The translations under genes and the position numbers were made by a program. This document shows positions 2,808-12,894 of a stretch of DNA of 13,563 nt, piece after piece. The stretch comes from an uncultured Deinococcales bacterium (lineage in GTDB: Bacteria; Deinococcota; Deinococci; Deinococcales; JAAFIG01). The notes under the pieces are model-generated. The model was not told the origin of the DNA, did no database searches, and worked only from the letters and a program-made list of their open reading frames with translations. The stretch lies in the NCBI GenBank assembly GCA_964244895.1, contig CAXTKV010000147.1, positions 1-13,563 of the forward strand. Reading direction: 5' to 3'. Position 1 is the stretch's first letter, and each line of letters starts with the position of its first letter.

Positions 2808-2995
2808 AAAAAGCGGATCCGCACGCCACGGACATCCCCTCGGGCCGGCGGTCGCGCGGCCAGACGGGTGTGGCGACGCGATGAGGCTCATAGGCTCCGG
2901 GGTTCGCGCGGTGTGCGAAAACCGCACAGGCATTCAAGACTTTCACCCATAGCATGAATCGCGGAGGTCGAGACCCCGATGAACGAGGCCACACG

Positions 2996-4348
2996 ATGAA
3001 ACTGAAACGCACGACCGTCGCGGGCGCGCTGATGCTTCTGTCTGGGGCTGCCCTGGCGCAGGACGTGCGCGGACTGGGCATGGGTGGGGCGCTGCTGCCG
3101 GGCCCAGCCCTGGCGCAATACAACCCCGCCTATTCGGCGTACCCCGCTGGCGGTCAGAGCTTCACCTTGCCGCTCGGGCTGGTGAACATCTTTTTGCGAC
3201 CGCAACTCAACCCGTTGACCCTGCTGAACGCCTCCGGCAGCGACCTTTCGGACCCCAACAAGGGTTTCGATGGTCTGGCCTTCTACGATCAGGTCACGCA
3301 CCTGAACGAGTTCATCCTCAACCCGCCCTCGAGCCCGCGTTCCATCACGGTCGATGTAGGCGGTTCGGGTTTCGTGATTCGCGACGAGAACGGCAACATC
3401 ATCGACCTGTCCGGCTCATCGGCGGGTTCGACCGCCGACGTGCGCGGCGCGAGCGGCCTGGGCACGATTCTCAACGTTCCGTTTTCCCTCGGGCCGTTGT
3501 CGTTCGGGATCGGGTTGTACGCGGGCACGTCCGGGCCGGATTTCACGCCGGACGCGGCCCTGCGTCAGGCGCTGGCGGGCGGCGGACTGAAACCGAACAC
3601 GACCTATTCCTTGAACGCCAAGGGCAGCGCTTCGGCGGCGGTCGTGATCAACGCGGCCTTCGCCACACCGATCGACATCCCCGCGATCGACACCTTCCCG
3701 GCGTTCAGGTTGTACGTCGGTGCGCGCGGCAACGTCTTTTACGGCCTGGCCTACACGGACGCCGACTTGACGGGTTCGATCCAGACGAATTCAGACTCGC
3801 AGCCGGACACGAACACCTTCACCTACAACGGCAAGGTCTTCTTGTCCTACGTCGGCAACGGCACCGGTCTGGGCGCGAGCGCCGATGTGGGTGTGGCCGC
3901 CGACATCGACGGCGCGACCGTCGGTTTGGGCGTGATCGGGGCGTTGAACTTCTCGAGCTGGAGCGGCCTGACCTACACGATTTCCAACGGCAGCACCACC
4001 ACGGCCACGCCGGATTCTCGTTCGTCGGTCGGGATCAACCCGCTGGTGACGCTCAACGCTGCGTATTCGTTCGTGCCGGAAGGCTTTCCGGGCACGCTGT
4101 TGGTCTCGGGCGACGCGCGTTTCGGTCGCGGCGCGTTCGCCGGACATCTGGGGCTCGAGGCGGGTTTCGGTGGGCTGCTGTTCGCCCGCGCGGGACTGGG
4201 TTACGACAGCGGCCTGCGCTTTGGGCTGGGCGGCGGCGTGGTCTTCGCGCCGGGCCTGGGTCTCGACCTGGCGCTCACGACCCACACGGCTCCGTTCACC
4301 AACCATCTCGATTTCGGGATCGCGGCTGCGGTTCGTTTCGGGTTTTGA
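2996..4348 (+). CDS. Secreted probable outer-membrane beta-barrel protein, FadL/OmpP1/TraF/PorV-like N-terminus
   Basis: GAGG RBS (2985-2988); signal peptide MKLKRTTVAGALMLLSGAALA; mature N-terminus QDVRGLGMGGA...YNPA; amphipathic Gly/aromatic-rich strands; C-terminal AVRFGF with terminal Phe (beta-signal). Confidence 0.75.
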   Translation: MKLKRTTVAGALMLLSGAALAQDVRGLGMGGALLPGPALAQYNPAYSAYPAGGQSFTLPLGLVNIFLRPQLNPLTLLNASGSDLSDPNKGFDGLAFYDQVTHLNEFILNPPSSPRSITVDVGGSGFVIRDENGNIIDLSGSSAGSTADVRGASGLGTILNVPFSLGPLSFGIGLYAGTSGPDFTPDAALRQALAGGGLKPNTTYSLNAKGSASAAVVINAAFATPIDIPAIDTFPAFRLYVGARGNVFYGLAYTDADLTGSIQTNSDSQPDTNTFTYNGKVFLSYVGNGTGLGASADVGVAADIDGATVGLGVIGALNFSSWSGLTYTISNGSTTTATPDSRSSVGINPLVTLNAAYSFVPEGFPGTLLVSGDARFGRGAFAGHLGLEAGFGGLLFARAGLGYDSGLRFGLGGGVVFAPGLGLDLALTTHTAPFTNHLDFGIAAAVRFGF

Positions 4349-4398: not shown

Positions 4399-4980
4399 AT
4401 GAAGAAACTCTTTCTCAGTCTGCTCATTGGTGCGGCGCTGACCTCGTGTGCGACGTTCACGCTCGTCACGGTCAACTTGGACGCCGAGGGCTTGCTCTCG
4501 CCATCCTTGCGCAGCAATCAGATCAGCGCCCCGGCCACGGGCGGTTCCACGCGCTTGCCGAACGACACGGGCGGCGACATCACCAACTTGCCGCAACTGA
4601 GCTTTCTCGAGAAAGCCCGCGTCAAGCTGGCGTTGACCTTCACGCCGGTCGCGGGAAACGCCAGCGATCTGAATTTGACGATCGACCTGTTCCTGGGGCC
4701 TTCGAGCGCCTCGGATGTCTTTCAAACGCAGTACCGACTTTCCAGCACGACCGTCGTGGTCACCCCCACGACCGGATCGCAAGCTGCGCTCGACATCGCG
4801 CTCGACCCGGCCAGCACCGACGCGAACGCCCGCAACGCCCTGAGCGAAATCAAGAAGGGCAGCTTCAAGTACGGCCTGCGGATCGTGTCCGCCGCCAGCG
4901 CGGGCGGCAAGATCGACTACACGATCAACAATCTGGATTTCAGCGTGACGGGTTACCCGGTCAAGATCATCAAGCCCTGA
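4399..4980 (+). CDS. Lipoprotein of unknown function, predicted beta-rich
   Basis: MKK, hydrophobic stretch and lipobox LTS-C17; 50 nt downstream of the barrel gene on the same strand; GAAAGG upstream. Confidence 0.85.
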   Translation: MKKLFLSLLIGAALTSCATFTLVTVNLDAEGLLSPSLRSNQISAPATGGSTRLPNDTGGDITNLPQLSFLEKARVKLALTFTPVAGNASDLNLTIDLFLGPSSASDVFQTQYRLSSTTVVVTPTTGSQAALDIALDPASTDANARNALSEIKKGSFKYGLRIVSAASAGGKIDYTINNLDFSVTGYPVKIIKP

Positions 4981-5037
4981 AGCCGCGAGCCGCAAGCCGC
5001 GAGCCGCGAGGAAAACAGACCTCGTGGCTCGCGGCTT
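4981..5037. terminator. Heptamer tandem repeat (AGCCGCG x4) folding into an 18-bp hairpin; probable terminator between convergent genes
   Basis: AGCCGCG AGCCGCA AGCCGCG AGCCGCG (4981-5008); arm 4994-5011 AAGCCGCGAGCCGCGAGG pairs with 5020-5037 CCTCGTGGCTCGCGGCTT (one G-U). Confidence 0.7.
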
Positions 5038-5054
5038 CAATTCGAGGCGTACTC

Positions 5055-5112
5055 GGGGACACCGTCCGGCACGATGTTCTTTTGCTGCAAAAAAGAGCGT
5101 CCAGGACGGTCT
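5055..5112. repeat. REP-like element (inverted pair)
   Basis: GGGGACACCGTCCGGCACG (5055-5073) ... GCGTCCAGGACGGTCT (5097-5112), followed by a T run. Confidence 0.75.
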
Positions 5113-5121
5113 TTTTTTGAT

Positions 5122-7068
5122 TCAGTTGGCCTGCAACCAACCCTCGCGCCCGAGGTCTTCGATCGGTTCGGGAACCTCACCGAGTTGACCCCGGAAACCC
5201 ATCGCCAGATGATCCAGACGCGATCTGGCCGCCAGAGACCCGTGAAGTTCGTACACGGATCGCACCAGCAAGACCGCCGTGCCGACATTGAGCGGGTTGA
5301 TCTCGAGCAGGCGCTCCGCGAGTTCCAGGCAGGCCGCGTGCTTCCCGAGCTTGTACAAGTCCTCGACGGCCCGCAATCCGGATTCCGTCAGGCTCCACTC
5401 CAGGTCGCGGCGGTACTCGTCCGCCCAGACGCCGTCCGATCGCGGCAGGAACGGCCCGGCGTATAAAGCCAGCGCGCGCTGCAGACCCAATTCACCGCCC
5501 AGTTGCAGGGCGCGCTTGGCTTCCAGCGCATCCCATTGCACCCGCAATCCCGGATGCTCGAGTCGGTACGCGCCGCGTTCCGACGAGTACGGCAAAACCA
5601 GTCCCGGCACGGCCTTCGCGACCATCTGTCGCACCACGTGCAAATACCCGCGCGCGCTCTGCGGCGAGGATTCGGAGAACACGTCCGTCTGAATCTGCTC
5701 GAGCGTGGCCTCACCGCGATCGAGCAAGTACGCCAGCGTCTCGACGGTGCGCGCCAGACCCGTGTTGACCCGAACGGGCTTGCCATCGACGGATAGCCCG
5801 TAGCCACCCAGCGTGGTCAGGCTGACCTGAGCCGCGCCGCGGCCATCGAAGGTGCGGTAATCGTCCAGGAGCGCCCCCAGGTAATCGCCCGAGCGAGCCG
5901 TCAACGACAGGTGTTCGAGCACCGCCGGAAGTACGCGCAATTCCGCCACGAAGACCGTCGCGTTGCCCAACGCGAAACGCGCATCGACCGCGCGCGCCAA
6001 CCGCAAACGGGCATCGCCGGTGCGCCCATCGCGCAGCAGCGCTTCGGCCAGGTGCAGCTGCGTCAGACCGATCTCGCGCTCGAGCTCGAGCGACTCGAAA
6101 CCCTCCAGGGCCGATTCGAGCGCCACCAGCGCACCCTGCTCGCGCAAGCGCACCAGCAGCGCCCCGTGGCGCAAGGCCAGGTGCGCGTGCGTGCGCCGAT
6201 CATCCGCCAGCACCCGAGCTCGCGACAGGTGCGCCCTGGCCAGCGCGAAGGCATCGTCCGCCGTGGCGATCGCGGCCAGTTGCAGGCTGGAAAAGAATTC
6301 CGTGTGTGCATCGCCAGCTGCGCGCGCCAGAGCCACACCCTCGAGGTGATGCGAGGCGGCATCTTCGCTCAGGCCGCGCAGACGCGCCACCACGCCCGCC
6401 ACGTACCGCAGAATTGGCACGCTTCCCGCCGATCCAGTCGCGCGCTCGAGCGATTCTTCGGCCTCTTTGAAACGCCCGGCGTACCCCGCGCAGACGGCCT
6501 GCATCACCAGAAGCCGCGATGGGTCACCTGAAACGCCATCCAGGGCTCGGGCGAGCATTTCGGTGGCTCGGGCATCGCGTCCGAGTTGCGCGAGCACCAA
6601 CCCGAGCGAACTGGCAAACCAGGCCAGCACGCGCGACCCGACCGGATCGCCGAGCGCTAGCGTCCAAGCGTTCTCGAGGGCGTCCGCCGCATCGCGCAAG
6701 CGACCCGCCGTGAAGTGCAGCGCCCCACTCTCACGCTCTGCCAGTGCCAGCCCAAAGCTTGAGAGCTTCGTCTTGTCGAGCGATTCCAGCACGCCCTCGG
6801 CGCGGTTGATCTGTCCTAGCAATCGGTAAGCCGTGACCAGATTCGCACCCGCGTCTTCAAAGCCGCGCGCTCGGGCGCGCACCAGCCAGGCCAGGGCTTC
6901 GGCGGTGCGCCCCAGATTCAGCAGGCAAAGCCCCGCCCAACCGTCGTCCTGCGCACTCGGGGACTCGAGCGACTCAAAGTACGCCCAAGCGCCCGCTGAA
7001 TCCCCGCAGAGCACGCGCTCGAGAATCGCGTTGTTGGTCTGAATTGCGTTTGACAAGGGTTTATTCAC
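5122..7068 (-). CDS. Transcriptional regulator: N-terminal TPR-like helical repeats, C-terminal OmpR-type winged HTH and BTAD (SARP-like)
   Basis: About 400 aa of TPR-like repeats (WAGLCLLNLGRTAEALAWL, SLGLVLAQLGRDARATEML, LAEALLRDGRTGDARLRL). Then VSLTTLGGYGLSVDGKPV..ETLAYLL..EQIQTDVF..ARGYLH..GAYRL (wHTH) and ALALYAGPFL..WADEYR..LLEINPLN (BTAD). No P-loop seen; GTG start uncertain. Confidence 0.85.
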   Translation of the reverse strand: MNKPLSNAIQTNNAILERVLCGDSAGAWAYFESLESPSAQDDGWAGLCLLNLGRTAEALAWLVRARARGFEDAGANLVTAYRLLGQINRAEGVLESLDKTKLSSFGLALAERESGALHFTAGRLRDAADALENAWTLALGDPVGSRVLAWFASSLGLVLAQLGRDARATEMLARALDGVSGDPSRLLVMQAVCAGYAGRFKEAEESLERATGSAGSVPILRYVAGVVARLRGLSEDAASHHLEGVALARAAGDAHTEFFSSLQLAAIATADDAFALARAHLSRARVLADDRRTHAHLALRHGALLVRLREQGALVALESALEGFESLELEREIGLTQLHLAEALLRDGRTGDARLRLARAVDARFALGNATVFVAELRVLPAVLEHLSLTARSGDYLGALLDDYRTFDGRGAAQVSLTTLGGYGLSVDGKPVRVNTGLARTVETLAYLLDRGEATLEQIQTDVFSESSPQSARGYLHVVRQMVAKAVPGLVLPYSSERGAYRLEHPGLRVQWDALEAKRALQLGGELGLQRALALYAGPFLPRSDGVWADEYRRDLEWSLTESGLRAVEDLYKLGKHAACLELAERLLEINPLNVGTAVLLVRSVYELHGSLAARSRLDHLAMGFRGQLGEVPEPIEDLGREGWLQAN

Positions 7069-7155
7069 GGACGACCCGATCCTGGCAACGCGTGAGGAAC
7101 TTGACCGAATGGAGCATCAGCGACCGATCTCTAGGCTTGCACCAGATTTGCGAAC

Positions 7156-7163
7156 GGGAGGTG
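7156..7163 (+). promoter_or_regulatory. Strong Shine-Dalgarno sequence of the small peptide ORF
   Basis: GGGAGGTG followed by AAAC-ATG (7168); candidate -10 TAGGCT at 7132-7137. Confidence 0.85.
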
Positions 7164-7167
7164 AAAC

Positions 7168-7281
7168 ATGTTCCAGCGTATCAAACCCATGTGGTGGAAG
7201 GTTGTGATCGCCCTCATTGCTGTTGGTGCAAGCGTGGCAATGGCCGATCCCGGAGGATTGATTGGTCCGGTCGGCGGCTGA
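7168..7281 (+). CDS. 37-aa secreted propeptide MFQRIKPMWWKVVIALIAVGASVAMA-DPGGLIGPVGG (putative signalling peptide)
   Basis: Manually translated (below the ORF-track cutoff). Strong RBS, basic n-region, hydrophobic h-region, A-M-A signal peptidase I site after residue 26, TGA at 7279-7281, downstream hairpin. Confidence 0.85.
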   Translation: MFQRIKPMWWKVVIALIAVGASVAMADPGGLIGPVGG

Positions 7282-7310
7282 TCCATTCCTCGTTCCAATT
7301 TTTCAACCCA

Positions 7311-7351
7311 GACGCCTTCCGCTCGCATTCGAGGGAAGGCGTCAAATTTTT
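7311..7351 (+). terminator. Probable intrinsic terminator of the peptide gene
   Basis: GACGCCTTCC-G-CTCG-CATT-CGAG-GGAAGGCGTC (10+4 bp stem, 7311-7343) followed by AAATTTTT. Confidence 0.7.
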
Positions 7352-7360
7352 CTACAACCC

Positions 7361-7422
7361 AGAACACCGTCCAGGACGTGAATTCTCGAGCTCCAGGGAC
7401 ACCGTCCTGCACGGTGTCCCTG
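7361..7422. repeat. REP-like elements: one arm plus a compact palindromic copy
   Basis: AGAACACCGTCCAGGACGTG (7361-7380); CAGGGACACCGT-CCTGC-ACGGTGTCCCTG (7394-7422, perfect 12-bp stem). Confidence 0.8.
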
Positions 7423-7454
7423 AAACACTCATGACATCACAGTAATCTCACGGC

Positions 7455-8147
7455 GTGATCCCGATTTACGACACCATCAAATCGTCCACGATCCCGTGGG
7501 TGACGCGTACGATCATCGTCGTGAACCTGGCCGTGTACGCGTACATGGCGCTCTTGGATGGCAACTGGTTGTCTTTCGATGGGCCGCGCGTGAATGCGTT
7601 CATTCAGGAGTGGGCGTTCAAACCCTCGACGTTGCTGCAAAATCCTTTGGATGCTGTGCGGGACATCTTCGTTTCGATGTTCATGCACGGTGGGCTGGAG
7701 CACATCGCGGGCAACATGTTGTTCTTGTGGATCTTCGGGGACAACGTCGAAGATCGGTTGGGTCACGGGCGCTTCCTGGGCTTTTACCTGGTCGGTGGCG
7801 TGGTCGCGGCCCTGACGCAGGCGGCGCTCGGTGGTTTCCTGGCGGGCAATCCGTCCGGCGCGATGCTGGGCGCGTCTGGAGCCATCGGTGCGGTGCTGGG
7901 CGCGTATTTAACGCTCTATCCGTCATCGCAGATTTACACGATCATCTTTCCGCTGTTCCGGTTTTTCATTCCGGCCTACCTGTACTTGCCGTACTGGGCG
8001 CTGATTCAGTTCGTTCAGCTTTCCAGCGGTCAGGCTGGCGTGGCGCTCTGGGCGCACATCGGCGGGTTTTTGTTCGGCCTGGTGGCGGTGCGCTTCCTGG
8101 CCAGCCGAGAGCCGGATTTTATTTCTTCCGGGCGTTTCGGTCGGTAG
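7455..8147 (+). CDS. Rhomboid family intramembrane serine protease
   Basis: FMHGGLEHIAGNMLFLWIFGDNVEDRLG, catalytic GASGA and WAHIGGF; multiple TM segments; TAATCT -10 (7443-7448) 6 nt before GTG. Confidence 0.95.
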   Translation: MIPIYDTIKSSTIPWVTRTIIVVNLAVYAYMALLDGNWLSFDGPRVNAFIQEWAFKPSTLLQNPLDAVRDIFVSMFMHGGLEHIAGNMLFLWIFGDNVEDRLGHGRFLGFYLVGGVVAALTQAALGGFLAGNPSGAMLGASGAIGAVLGAYLTLYPSSQIYTIIFPLFRFFIPAYLYLPYWALIQFVQLSSGQAGVALWAHIGGFLFGLVAVRFLASREPDFISSGRFGR

Positions 8148-9324: not shown

Positions 9325-12300
9325 TTACGGCTGCAATTCCAGATTCCGATTCGATCCGCTCACCGCAGGGTGCAGGAAGGACTGCACCTCTCGGCCCGAA
9401 CACGGAAATCCGAACAAATGCCCCTGTAGGCGGTCGCAACCGAGCGAGCGCAATATTTCAGCCTGGAACTCGGATTCGACACCTTCGGCCACGACCTCGA
9501 GCTGCAACTGGTGGGCGATGGTCACGATGGCCGGAACCAGCGAGCGCTCGCTCGGGCCTTGCTGAAGTTCGCGAATGAACGAACGGTCAACTTTCAACAC
9601 GTCCACCGGCAAATTCTTGAGGTACGACAACGACGAATACCCCGTGCCGAAGTCGTCGATTGCGACCCGCACGCCCAGCCCGTGCAGGGCCCGAATGCGT
9701 TCCGCGACCAGATCGAAATCGCGGGTGAAAACGCCTTCGGTCAGCTCCAGTTCCAGGTAGCGGGCTTCCAGGCCGTGGCGCTCGAGCGCGTCGGTCACGG
9801 ATTCCAGGAAGTCCGGGCGGATGATGTGAAGGGCGGTGATGTTGACCGCGCACGGCACGATCTCGAAACCCGCGCGCCGCCAGGCGGCGGTCTGACGGCA
9901 GGCTTCGTTCAGCACCCAAATATCGATCGGCACGATCAATCCGGATTCTTCGGCGACCGGAATGAAAATCGTCGGGCTGATCTGGGTGACGCCGGGACGG
10001 TTCCAGCGCAGCAGCGCCTCGAGCGCCACGGTGCGACCCGTGGCGTCCAGTTGCGGCTGGTAGTGAACCTCGAATTCCTCTCGTTCGATTGCGCGCCGCA
10101 ATGCGCCCTCGAGTTCCAGGCGTTCGGCGGCCATGCCTTTCATGGACGAGGTGAAAAGCTGAACGCCGTTCTTGCCGCGCAGCTTGACGTGATAGAGCGC
10201 AGCATCGGCGTTCGATTGCAGCGCGGTGGCATCCAGTCCGGCATCCGGGTGGATCGCCAAGCCCGCGCTGGCCGAGACGAAAAACTCGTGTCCGTCCAGC
10301 ACGAGGGGTTCGCGCAGCGTCTCTAAAAGGGCGTGCGCCCGAGCCAGGATCTCCTCAGGGCTTCGCAGCTCGAACACGGCGGCGAATTCGTCCCCACCGA
10401 AGCGGGCGACCATCCCCGCCAGGCCGGATTCGCCGTTCAGGCGTTCCGCAACGCGCTTCAAGAGCGCATCGCCGAAGGCGTGACCGAAGGAATCGTTGTA
10501 GTGCTTGAAGCCGTCCAGATCGAGGAACATCACGCCGACCGCGACCGTCCCCCGGCGCGCATTCGAGAGCGCCCGTTCGAGCCAGCGCTCGAACTGCACG
10601 CGGTTGGGCAACCCGGTCAGCGCATCGTAATTGGCCTGGTGGGTCAAGCGGGCCATCATGTGATCGCGTTCGATGGCGATGGCCGCCAGTTGCGCGACCA
10701 GCTTCAGGGCTTCGGTCTCTGAGGGTTTGGGCGCGCGCGGCTGAGTGAAGCACAGGCTGACCAGCCCGAGCGCGTCGCCCGAGGATGTTTTGACCGGGTT
10801 CGTCCAGACGGCCCGCATCCCGAGTCTGGCGGTCAGATCGGCCAGGTTGAGGGGCTGATTCTGGAACAGGTCTTTGATCACGGTGGGTTCCGAGAGCAGC
10901 CGCTCGAGACCGGATGCGCCCAGGATCGGATCGAGTCGCTGCGGGTCGAACACGTCCCGAACGCCATCAGGCGCACCAAAAGAGGCCAGAAGGCGCAGGT
11001 GATCGCCGTCCTGGACGCTGATCCCAGCGAACCCACCGGGAAACTGGCGCTCGAGCATGGCGCAGAGCGCTGCCAGCACGACCTCGAGCAATTCGTCGCG
11101 CGCAATCATCTCGAGCGCCCCGCTCCGATCCCGCTCGAGCGCCTGGGCGTTGCGCTGGCTGGTGATGTCGGTCTGCACGCCGCGCAGAATCGGTGCCGAT
11201 CCGGGTTCGCGCACGACCGTGACCACGTCGCGCACCCAGACGGTCTGCCCGTCGGCGGCCAGGATGCGGTAATCGACTTGCCAGCCATCGCCCTGTTTGT
11301 CCCAGTGGGTGGCCAGATCCAGGACGCGTTGGCGGTCTTCGGGGTGCAGACGGCTTTCCCACAAGTGCGGGTTCTCGAGCCAGGTTTGCGGCGGGTACCC
11401 GCGCAGGGCTTCGACCTGCGGGCTGAGGAAGGTGTAACCCGCCTGTCCGGCTACGGCCTCCCAGAAGACGCCCTTGACGGATTCGATCAGGTTCTTGTAG
11501 GCCAGCCGGTCGTTTTCCAGGGCGATGGCCGCCCGTTTTTCTTCGGTGATGTCCAGCATCACGCCGCGAAAGCGGTCCTGTTGACCGGGTTCGGAAACGA
11601 AAGACGACACGTCGCGAAACCAGACCGTGCGCCCGTCCCTGGCGATCATGCGGTACTCGCTTCGGACGCCGCGACGCTCCAGCAGCGCGTCCGCCCAGGC
11701 CCTGGATGCAGCCTCGCGGTCGTCGGGATGGACGTGATCGGCCCAGAAGTTCTCGTGTTCCAGCCAGTCCTTGACGGGATACCCGAGCAGGCGCTCGACC
11801 TGCGGGCTGTTGTAAAGGTTTCGTCCCGTGGCGGCTTCGGCTTCCCACAGCACGGCATCGACGGTATCGATGATGGTTCTGGCCTGGACTTCGCTGCGCG
11901 CCAGGGCGCGCTGCATCTCGAGTTCCACCGTGCGATCCAGCAGCGTCCCGGCCAGCCCGACGACCCGCCCAGTGTCGTCGCGACGCGCCCAGGTGTCCAG
12001 GTCCAGCCAGCCGAGGCTGTCGTCCTTTCGGGTGTAACGCGGGGTGGCGTGAACGTCCGGCACGCGCCCGGCCAGCAGTTCGGCCCAAGATTCCAGGCAG
12101 GCCTCGCGGTCGTCGAGGTGCAAGAAATCCACCAATCGACGCCCGAGCGAGTCATCCACGGTGTGACCGGTGATGGTCGTCCAGTTCTGGTTCAAGAACA
12201 CCAATCGCCCCTCGGTGTCCGTCTGAAACAGGGTTTCCTTGACGGACTCGACCACGTCCCGATAGCGCTTCTGGCTTTCGCGCAATTCGTGTTCGACGCG

Positions 12301-12894
12301 TTGGCGCTCGAGCAATTCGGCCTGCGCTTCGGCCCGGAGCTGGGCGTGTTCGAGGGTGATCGAGGCCAGCGCCGCGAATCGTTCCAACCGGTCGATATCG
12401 TCCGGGGTGAAGCACCGTACAGGATCGTTCAGACCCAAGCCGATCACGCCCACGACCTGTTCGCCGCGTCTGAGCGGCACGCCCAGGCTGACCCGCACCA
12501 CACCGTGCGGGTAGCCCACCGCGCGGCCTTCCCAGGCGTCGTAATTTTCAATCAGTAGCGTTTCGCCCGATTGCCAGACGCGCCCGCCGACGCCCTCTCC
12601 GGCGCGGAGCCGATAACCCTCGAGCCCCGAGAAGCTGCCCGAGCAGAACCGCGCCTCGAGCGCGGCTCCATCCTCAGACTGAAAGTACAAGTAGGCGTTC
12701 GGCGTGCCGACCATCGCGGCGGCGGAACGCGTCACCAGCTCGAGCAGCTCCTCGAGTTCGACGGGGGCGAACCGCAAAAGCGGCCCGTGGGACGTTCTTT
12801 CGCCTCGATCGGCCTCGAGCGATTCATTTAAGAGGCTCAATGCGTCCTGCCCCAACGTTTCAAAACCCCCCACATCATCCCCCTGAAACGGCAC
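9325..12894 (-). CDS. Diguanylate cyclase/phosphodiesterase: GAF-PAS-PAS-PAS-GAF-GGDEF-EAL
   Basis: GAF (GEGVGGRVWQSGE..GVPL..VVGVI); three PAS/PAC domains (FLHLDD, HVHPDD, RLHPED; DG..W); second GAF; DALTGLPNR, FLDLDGFK, RFGGDEF; EALLRW, LELELTE, IDDFGTGYSSL, KVDRSF, AEGVE. Start codon uncertain. Confidence 0.95.
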   Translation of the reverse strand: MPFQGDDVGGFETLGQDALSLLNESLEADRGERTSHGPLLRFAPVELEELLELVTRSAAAMVGTPNAYLYFQSEDGAALEARFCSGSFSGLEGYRLRAGEGVGGRVWQSGETLLIENYDAWEGRAVGYPHGVVRVSLGVPLRRGEQVVGVIGLGLNDPVRCFTPDDIDRLERFAALASITLEHAQLRAEAQAELLERQRVEHELRESQKRYRDVVESVKETLFQTDTEGRLVFLNQNWTTITGHTVDDSLGRRLVDFLHLDDREACLESWAELLAGRVPDVHATPRYTRKDDSLGWLDLDTWARRDDTGRVVGLAGTLLDRTVELEMQRALARSEVQARTIIDTVDAVLWEAEAATGRNLYNSPQVERLLGYPVKDWLEHENFWADHVHPDDREAASRAWADALLERRGVRSEYRMIARDGRTVWFRDVSSFVSEPGQQDRFRGVMLDITEEKRAAIALENDRLAYKNLIESVKGVFWEAVAGQAGYTFLSPQVEALRGYPPQTWLENPHLWESRLHPEDRQRVLDLATHWDKQGDGWQVDYRILAADGQTVWVRDVVTVVREPGSAPILRGVQTDITSQRNAQALERDRSGALEMIARDELLEVVLAALCAMLERQFPGGFAGISVQDGDHLRLLASFGAPDGVRDVFDPQRLDPILGASGLERLLSEPTVIKDLFQNQPLNLADLTARLGMRAVWTNPVKTSSGDALGLVSLCFTQPRAPKPSETEALKLVAQLAAIAIERDHMMARLTHQANYDALTGLPNRVQFERWLERALSNARRGTVAVGVMFLDLDGFKHYNDSFGHAFGDALLKRVAERLNGESGLAGMVARFGGDEFAAVFELRSPEEILARAHALLETLREPLVLDGHEFFVSASAGLAIHPDAGLDATALQSNADAALYHVKLRGKNGVQLFTSSMKGMAAERLELEGALRRAIEREEFEVHYQPQLDATGRTVALEALLRWNRPGVTQISPTIFIPVAEESGLIVPIDIWVLNEACRQTAAWRRAGFEIVPCAVNITALHIIRPDFLESVTDALERHGLEARYLELELTEGVFTRDFDLVAERIRALHGLGVRVAIDDFGTGYSSLSYLKNLPVDVLKVDRSFIRELQQGPSERSLVPAIVTIAHQLQLEVVAEGVESEFQAEILRSLGCDRLQGHLFGFPCSGREVQSFLHPAVSGSNRNLELQP

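Follow-up and report, generated by a model that had tools for sequence, protein, structure and literature searches.

Quorum-sensing signals, as outlined in PMC10075063, are oligopeptides in Bacillota and enzyme-made small molecules in Pseudomonadota and Actinomycetota. The RRNPP(A) systems (Rap-Phr, NprR-NprX, PlcR-PapR, Rgg-SHP and AimR-AimP), which occur in Bacillota and their phages and plasmids, consist of a gene for a cytoplasmic tetratricopeptide repeat (TPR) receptor and an adjoining small propeptide gene. A second family of interest here is that of the SARP regulators, whose target promoters, according to PMC10936776, contain direct repeats at a spacing of 11 or 22 bp, the 3' one lying 8 bp away from the -10 element. 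We analysed a stretch of 13,563 nucleotides (hereafter the window; contig CAXTKV010000147.1, assembly GCA_964244895.1) from an uncultured Deinococcales bacterium, in which a small gene for a putative secreted peptide stands divergently from a gene for a regulator that joins a TPR domain to a winged helix and a BTAD domain. From its sequence and predicted structures, this two-gene cassette is a candidate for a Deinococcota counterpart of the RRNPP systems, in which a peptide would induce its own production through a regulator with a SARP output; we give this reading about even odds.

The cassette shares with the RRNPP(A) systems the arrangement of a cytoplasmic TPR receptor gene beside a small propeptide gene, a TPR domain whose predicted fold comes closest to those of Rap, NprR and AimR, and the presence in one genome of several paralogous pairs, whose peptides differ and whose precursors in some cases contain repeated units. 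It differs from them in its effector, which is a C-terminal winged helix with a BTAD domain and not an N-terminal XRE-type helix-turn-helix or the three-helix bundle of Rap, and in its host, which belongs to Deinococcota and not to Bacillota. Furthermore, the predicted mature peptide of the cassette begins directly at the signal-peptidase junction, and the sequence of the regulator resembles those of the RRNPP(A) receptors no better than it resembles generic TPR proteins. We propose that the cassette works like an RRNPP system, yet by its effector domain it falls outside that group.

AfsR of the AfsR-AfsS pair of Streptomyces coelicolor and other large SARPs also have a SARP domain joined to TPRs (the TM score of the cassette domain to that of AfsR was 0.71); in the cassette regulator the TPR domain would modulate the SARP domain. 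In that pair, as proposed for the cassette, the target is a neighbouring small gene, and the direct repeats of its promoter lie at 8 bp from the -10 element (PMC10936776). The cassette regulator is a SARP by its domain and by promoter geometry, but one with the reverse domain order (TPR, then SARP) and without a NOD/ATPase module. Its small gene encodes a signal peptide followed by a short tail, whereas AfsS is not known to be secreted. A third comparison concerns domain III of MalT, the sensor of a STAND regulator: MalT senses maltotriose and inhibitor proteins and not a genetically linked peptide, and the cassette regulator carries neither the ATPase module nor the LuxR-type helix-turn-helix of that protein.

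To characterize the regulator, an AF2 model was built from a 51-row alignment, and a mean pLDDT of 92.6 was obtained. In this model the TPR repeats were preceded by about 13 residues only, and the winged helix followed directly after them. Foldseek with the whole model returned generic TPR matches only; with the TPR domain, the best structural matches were the Rap, NprR and AimR receptors, and nine of the ten top matches were peptide-pheromone receptors. The C-terminal half modelled alone (pLDDT 93.8) matched the SARP domain of AfsR (8hvr_I, E 2.4e-8, TM 0.71/0.68) and also EmbR, and its sequence profile recovered the same two proteins (AfsR, E 5e-4; EmbR, 0.009). The Pfam BTAD family (PF03704) was detected in 23 of the 51 aligned family members, while the window regulator itself gave no match to PF03704 at E<=10. 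No NB-ARC or AAA family appeared in the Pfam searches of the regulator and the aligned members. The highest 19-residue hydropathy window in the regulator was 1.46, and it is therefore expected to have no membrane segment. The first-pass annotation, made from the letters of this DNA, had described the regulator as TPR, then winged helix, then BTAD, and this order was borne out by the models, the Foldseek and profile matches and the Pfam matches in family members.

The small gene of the window has 37 codons and was absent from the list of open reading frames (ORFs), as it is too short for the 60-residue limit of that list. Its product starts with a basic N-terminus and continues with a hydrophobic core from residue 12 (15-residue Kyte-Doolittle mean 2.62), an Ala-x-Ala junction and a Gly/Pro-rich tail of 11 residues, and we infer that the precursor is cleaved after the junction. 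Downstream of the stop codon, a hairpin at 7311-7343 had a folding energy of -25.2 kcal/mol (z -5.9; none of 200 shuffled sequences was as stable) and was followed by AAATTTTT at 7344-7351. A consensus scanner over 6900-7500 reported 0 terminators; the T run begins 3 nt past the stem, outside the rule of the scanner. The ORF, its Shine-Dalgarno site, its tail codons, the strong hairpin and the 99-nt gap between the divergent starts all lie where the first-pass annotation had put them, as judged by translation, sequence and folding (Table 1). The peptide had no Pfam or NCBIfam match, and its Atlas matches were to unnamed clusters only, at <=0.86.

To see how often such an ORF accompanies the regulator, the divergent strand was inspected within 830 nt of each regulator start. 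Homologue matches that started after query residue 45 or were shorter than 150 residues were excluded, as were loci with less than 250 nt upstream, among them L011, L030 and L046; the 64 homologue loci that were counted mix orthologues and paralogues and are thus not independent. A strict rule (basic N-region, uncharged hydrophobic core, small-x-small site, and a tail of 6-45 residues rich in Gly, Pro, Ser or Thr) found a divergent ORF in 49 of the 64 loci, against a background of 0.018 per 830 nt, calculated from 220 matches in genome G000, whose two strands together amount to 10.25 Mb. A second, independent rule (ATG, Shine-Dalgarno site and a relaxed signal peptide, 26-70 residues) again gave 49/64, with a background of 0.009 per locus. 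With the two rules combined, 56 of the 64 loci had a small divergent ORF built in this way, where about 0.01-0.02 would be expected per locus, and by-eye inspection revealed such an ORF also at L012, L013 and L029, three of the eight loci that both rules had missed. Conservation beside regulator homologues was the computational test that the first-pass annotation had set for its own claim, and the small-ORF class came through it; the other parts of the claim that computation could reach were supported as well.

The substitution pattern of these ORFs was then compared by codon position. In 11 equal-length orthologue pairs, substitutions were distributed 64/43/140 over the three positions (chi-square p 1.8e-14), and in an overlapping ORF of another frame the peak was displaced as expected. 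GGAGG-type sites were found ahead of most of the homologous peptide ORFs. The pattern of substitutions shows that the small ORFs evolve as coding sequence. It might be argued that the ORF of the window is a chance occurrence in a GC-rich intergenic region and no gene at all, for it is short, has no family match and shares its stretch with longer ORFs in other frames. The recurrence in 56 of the 64 loci, the third-position bias, the Shine-Dalgarno sites and a promoter box at a fixed distance all speak against such an origin; it was rejected by the conservation and codon-position tests, and we give it practically no chance of being right. A first metagenome scan for further loci found nothing, and a second one gave three distant loci, of which the one with sufficient upstream DNA has the peptide ORF. 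Downstream hairpins had a z below -2 in 22 of 47 other loci, a crude count that rests on 30 shuffles and in which the detection of T runs is unreliable.

The tails of the predicted products provided further insights into what may be released. They appear unmodified and are 6-25 residues long (6-45 under the strict rule), and they vary among paralogue classes, one of which terminates in Cys-x-x-Cys. Among 61 candidate ORFs, which still include a few spurious ones, a Gly-Gly end was present in 12. Precursors from f2, which is the second family of the order, have 33 residues with tails of 6-7 residues, and their genes lie 350-560 nt from the regulator. At five loci (L018, L019, L026, L029 and L059), the tail contains two to three copies of a unit of 6-10 residues, each of which starts directly after a small-residue junction resembling a signal-peptide cleavage site; this layout suggests that several copies would be released per precursor. 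Tandem peptide genes were found beside one regulator at three or four loci: at L007, L032 and L040 each gene has its own Shine-Dalgarno site, whereas the second ORF of L042, also counted as tandem, appears spurious by eye. Because of these tail features, namely the internal repeats at junctions and the tandem genes, the active product is likely to be a short released unit.

The small gene might instead encode a membrane micro-protein, that is, an uncleaved signal-anchor of 37 residues in the inner membrane with a short periplasmic tail, which would modulate the regulator or a different membrane protein. Many small hydrophobic proteins act as regulators that reside in the membrane, and in this family the signal-peptide part does not fall behind the tail in conservation. 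However, a small-x-small junction follows the core across the family, in 27 of the 61 candidate ORFs as Ala followed by Asp-Pro or Asn-Pro, and the internal repeat units restart right after similar junctions. The cytoplasmic N-region, moreover, has a few residues only, and the regulator is expected to lack a membrane segment. We therefore regard a membrane-resident product as quite improbable and continue with a released peptide.

Next, the region between the divergent genes was searched for repeats. Heptamer pairs were counted at >=6/7 matches in 39 intergenic regions, and a strong excess was observed at an offset of 11 nt (61 pairs against 9.1 expected, z 11.5), with a further excess at 22-23 nt (z 4-5). 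Counted per locus, a pair at offset 22 occurred in 10 of 40 loci and one at offset 11 in 12; all offsets outside 10-12, 21-23 and 32-34 nt had a mean of 3.2 loci and a maximum of 8. The repeats contain TCAG, a motif that was found 48 times on the peptide-coding strand and 16 times on the opposite strand. In the window and at L017, L037, L038, L040, L042, L045 and L047, the proximal TCAG starts 49-51 nt upstream of the ATG. Ten loci have a TCAG at a distance of 45-60 nt upstream of the ATG; in eight of them, one of which is the window, exactly 8 nt separate the heptamer from a downstream TAnnnT, and this -10-like hexamer reads TAGGCT in L001, L017 and L038. The promoters of the peptide genes match the published SARP promoter geometry at the level of the family, and that of the window matches it only partly; the argument is strongest for the family because the window has a single clear heptamer. 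The presence of a repeat box of the SARP type ahead of the peptide genes points to control of the peptide promoter by the regulator, and from the adjacency of the two genes we infer that this regulator is the protein that binds the box.

The first-pass annotation had also asked for co-variation of receptor and peptide. Over 406 non-independent pairs from 29 cassettes, tail identity gave a Spearman correlation of 0.32 with TPR identity and of 0.20 with SARP identity, and the signal-peptide part gave a correlation of about 0. The tail thus tracks the TPR domain above the SARP domain, but the effect is weak, and linkage alone predicts some of it. Some close pairs retained the tail exactly, and others had substituted another one.

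Several observations weigh against a loop in which the regulator senses the peptide encoded beside it. Five of the 64 loci (L035, L036, L039, L041 and L063) have a regulator without such a divergent ORF. The last 10 residues of the precursors were conserved at 78% and the signal-peptide part at 80% (Fisher p 0.68), so that the tail is no better conserved than the rest. Linked genes that descend together are expected to co-vary in any case. The sequence profile of the TPR domain matched NprR (E 2.5e-10) and RapJ (7e-9), and both ranked below designed and eukaryotic TPR proteins. As for the promoter, the scan over 6900-7500 found 0 sigma-70 promoters, the window has one clear heptamer and no repeat array, and pairs at 11 nt are confined to the 12 of 40 loci mentioned. 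Finally, a SARP box indicates SARP control of the peptide and not sensing of the peptide.

In another possible arrangement, the TPR domain senses some other ligand or a protein, and the SARP regulator switches on the small gene, whose peptide would then be a product and not a ligand. The product could signal to a separate receptor in the membrane, bind metal or act outside the cell in some other way, and the case would resemble that of AfsR activating its neighbouring small gene afsS. Against such a one-way output stand the unmodified tails of 6-25 residues, with no conserved modification, export or immunity genes alongside, and the nine peptide-pheromone receptors among the ten top structural matches. 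The pairing of one peptide with each regulator in several paralogous pairs of a genome also argues for a ligand, as does, weakly, the closer agreement of tail identity with TPR than with SARP identity. In our view a peptide that serves as output only is the main rival to the loop, though an unlikely one.

If the autoinducing reading is followed, the regulator would bind the TCAG-type heptamer box 8 nt upstream of TAGGCT and activate the peptide promoter. The 37-residue precursor would be exported by the Sec pathway and cut by signal peptidase I after Ala-x-Ala, and the 11-residue peptide would be freed into the periplasm and then into the medium. Whole or after trimming, the peptide would re-enter the cell through one of many oligopeptide permeases, occupy the TPR groove of its own regulator and alter the activity of that regulator, giving a density-dependent feedback loop. 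Several paralogous cassettes per genome would serve as separate channels. Plausible machinery for uptake and cleavage is present in genome G000, with 22 matches to SBP_bac_5 (OppA-type) and two to signal peptidase I. Extended to the phylum, the proposal is that Deinococcota possess a family of RRNPP-like quorum-sensing channels, several per genome, in which an unmodified, Sec-exported and re-imported peptide of 7-25 residues acts on a TPR-SARP receptor that drives the promoter of its own peptide; we advance this wider form tentatively, with slightly less than even confidence.

The first-pass annotation knew of no described system of this form, and in the literature searched, on RRNPP, on SARP/TPR and BTAD proteins in Deinococcus and on RRNPP outside Firmicutes, no description of such a system was found. 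In the article texts of two RRNPP surveys (PMC10075063 and PMC9765709), the terms Deinococc, BTAD and SARP do not occur. If the proposal is true, the cassette would represent genetically encoded peptide signalling through a cytoplasmic receptor in a diderm phylum outside Bacillota, and a new wiring of a pheromone sensor of the Rap/NprR fold to a Streptomyces-type SARP activator. It would also offer simple pairs for testing, here a synthetic peptide of 11 residues with a single regulator and a promoter of 99 nt, and cultivable Deinococcus species have plasmid-borne homologues. Annotation pipelines overlook small genes of this kind, which are not listed in the gene tables of two named plasmids. 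The positions of the features in the window are collected in Table 1.

Table 1. Features of the divergent peptide-regulator cassette, in positions of the window
Feature	Positions	Strand	Remarks
Divergent promoter region	7069-7167	.	99 nt; sequence
Heptamer TCAGCGA, predicted promoter-proximal SARP repeat	7117-7123	+	TCAG 51 nt before ATG
-10-like hexamer TAGGCT	7132-7137	+	8 nt after heptamer
Shine-Dalgarno site GGGAGGTG	7156-7163	+	ends 4 nt before ATG; sequence
Small ORF	7168-7281	+	37 residues and stop; from translation
Predicted Sec signal peptide, 26 codons, small-x-small end	7168-7245	+	translation, hydropathy
Gly/Pro-rich tail, 11 residues, predicted released peptide, and stop	7246-7281	+	tail codons 7246-7278
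Terminator-like hairpin, then T run	7311-7351	+	RNA fold
Regulator gene, cytoplasmic TPR-winged helix-BTAD fusion	5122-7068	-	648 residues, GTG start (7068)
TPR sensor domain, residues 14-408	5845-7029	-	Rap/NprR-like by predicted structure
Winged helix-turn-helix (OmpR-type), SARP DNA-binding part, residues 413-512	5533-5832	-	strand/helix pattern in models
BTAD helical domain, residues 513-646	5131-5532	-	structural match to AfsR, EmbR

The regulator belongs to a multi-copy family. A match to it was found in 38 of 61 related genomes, distributed over the families as 17/18 (f1), 8/11 (f2), 8/11 (f3), 1/10 (f4) and 3/10 (f5). All seven plasmid records with a regulator homologue were from Deinococcus, and the homologues were annotated there as BTAD/SARP regulators or as hypothetical proteins. 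The nearest Atlas clusters were mostly from Deinococcota as well, so that the Deinococcota lineage proposed in the first-pass annotation is supported by the relatives. On two named Deinococcus plasmids an ORF of the same design was present and was missing from the gene tables. On the third plasmid inspected, that of Deinococcus sp. QL22 (L078), there was no peptide ORF; on the upstream side, a transposase gene stops 243 nt short of the regulator, which is flanked by more insertion sequence genes, and the cassette was probably disrupted by insertion.

Genome G000 holds five near-full-length copies of the regulator. The copy on its contig C217 (L071, 2998-4977) has an in-frame TAA and still has a peptide ORF of the same design upstream; this cassette may be decaying, or the stop may be a sequencing error, and L071 was left out of the alignments because of it. 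At L039 and L041, two of the loci without a peptide ORF, the regulator faces a protein of about 512 residues with SBBP beta-propeller repeats, and it may control a different secreted product there. In the long spacers of L021-L027 (f2), of 350-560 nt, a roughly 12-nt motif (GGTTGGGAGACC) was seen in two to three copies, often within inverted repeats, and it might serve as a binding site or as an RNA element.

Beyond the two genes, conservation of the surroundings was not observed: at 36 other loci, 48 ORFs that flank the peptide gene were scanned, and only orthologous neighbours shared a family. Comparison of these loci indicates that the conserved unit is the small gene with its divergent regulator. 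The rhomboid gene at 7455-8147 had been considered as a processing partner of the peptide and was rejected, with no rhomboid among those 48 flanking ORFs; since genes beyond the pair are not conserved, it is taken to be incidental. A protein of 1189 residues with GAF, PAS, GGDEF and EAL domains is encoded 2 kb from the cassette, at 9325-12894 (-), and at L056 (2915-5362) the gene after the peptide encodes a GAF/PAS protein.

On the other side of the cassette, ORFs of 464 residues (2954-4348, +) and 193 residues (4399-4980, +) are convergent with the regulator, and neither had a Pfam or NCBIfam match. Just past the stop codon of the latter, at 4978-5039, a 14-nt tandem repeat pairs with 5020-5039 as a long hairpin, which is probably the terminator of the 193-residue ORF. 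Copies of a palindromic element of about 25 nt flank the cassette at 5056-5077 and 7396-7420 (also at 5093-5108 and 7363-7378). This element gave 75 matches with <=4 substitutions on both strands of G000, and because it is dispersed in that genome it is regarded as a REP-like repeat and not as specific to the cassette.

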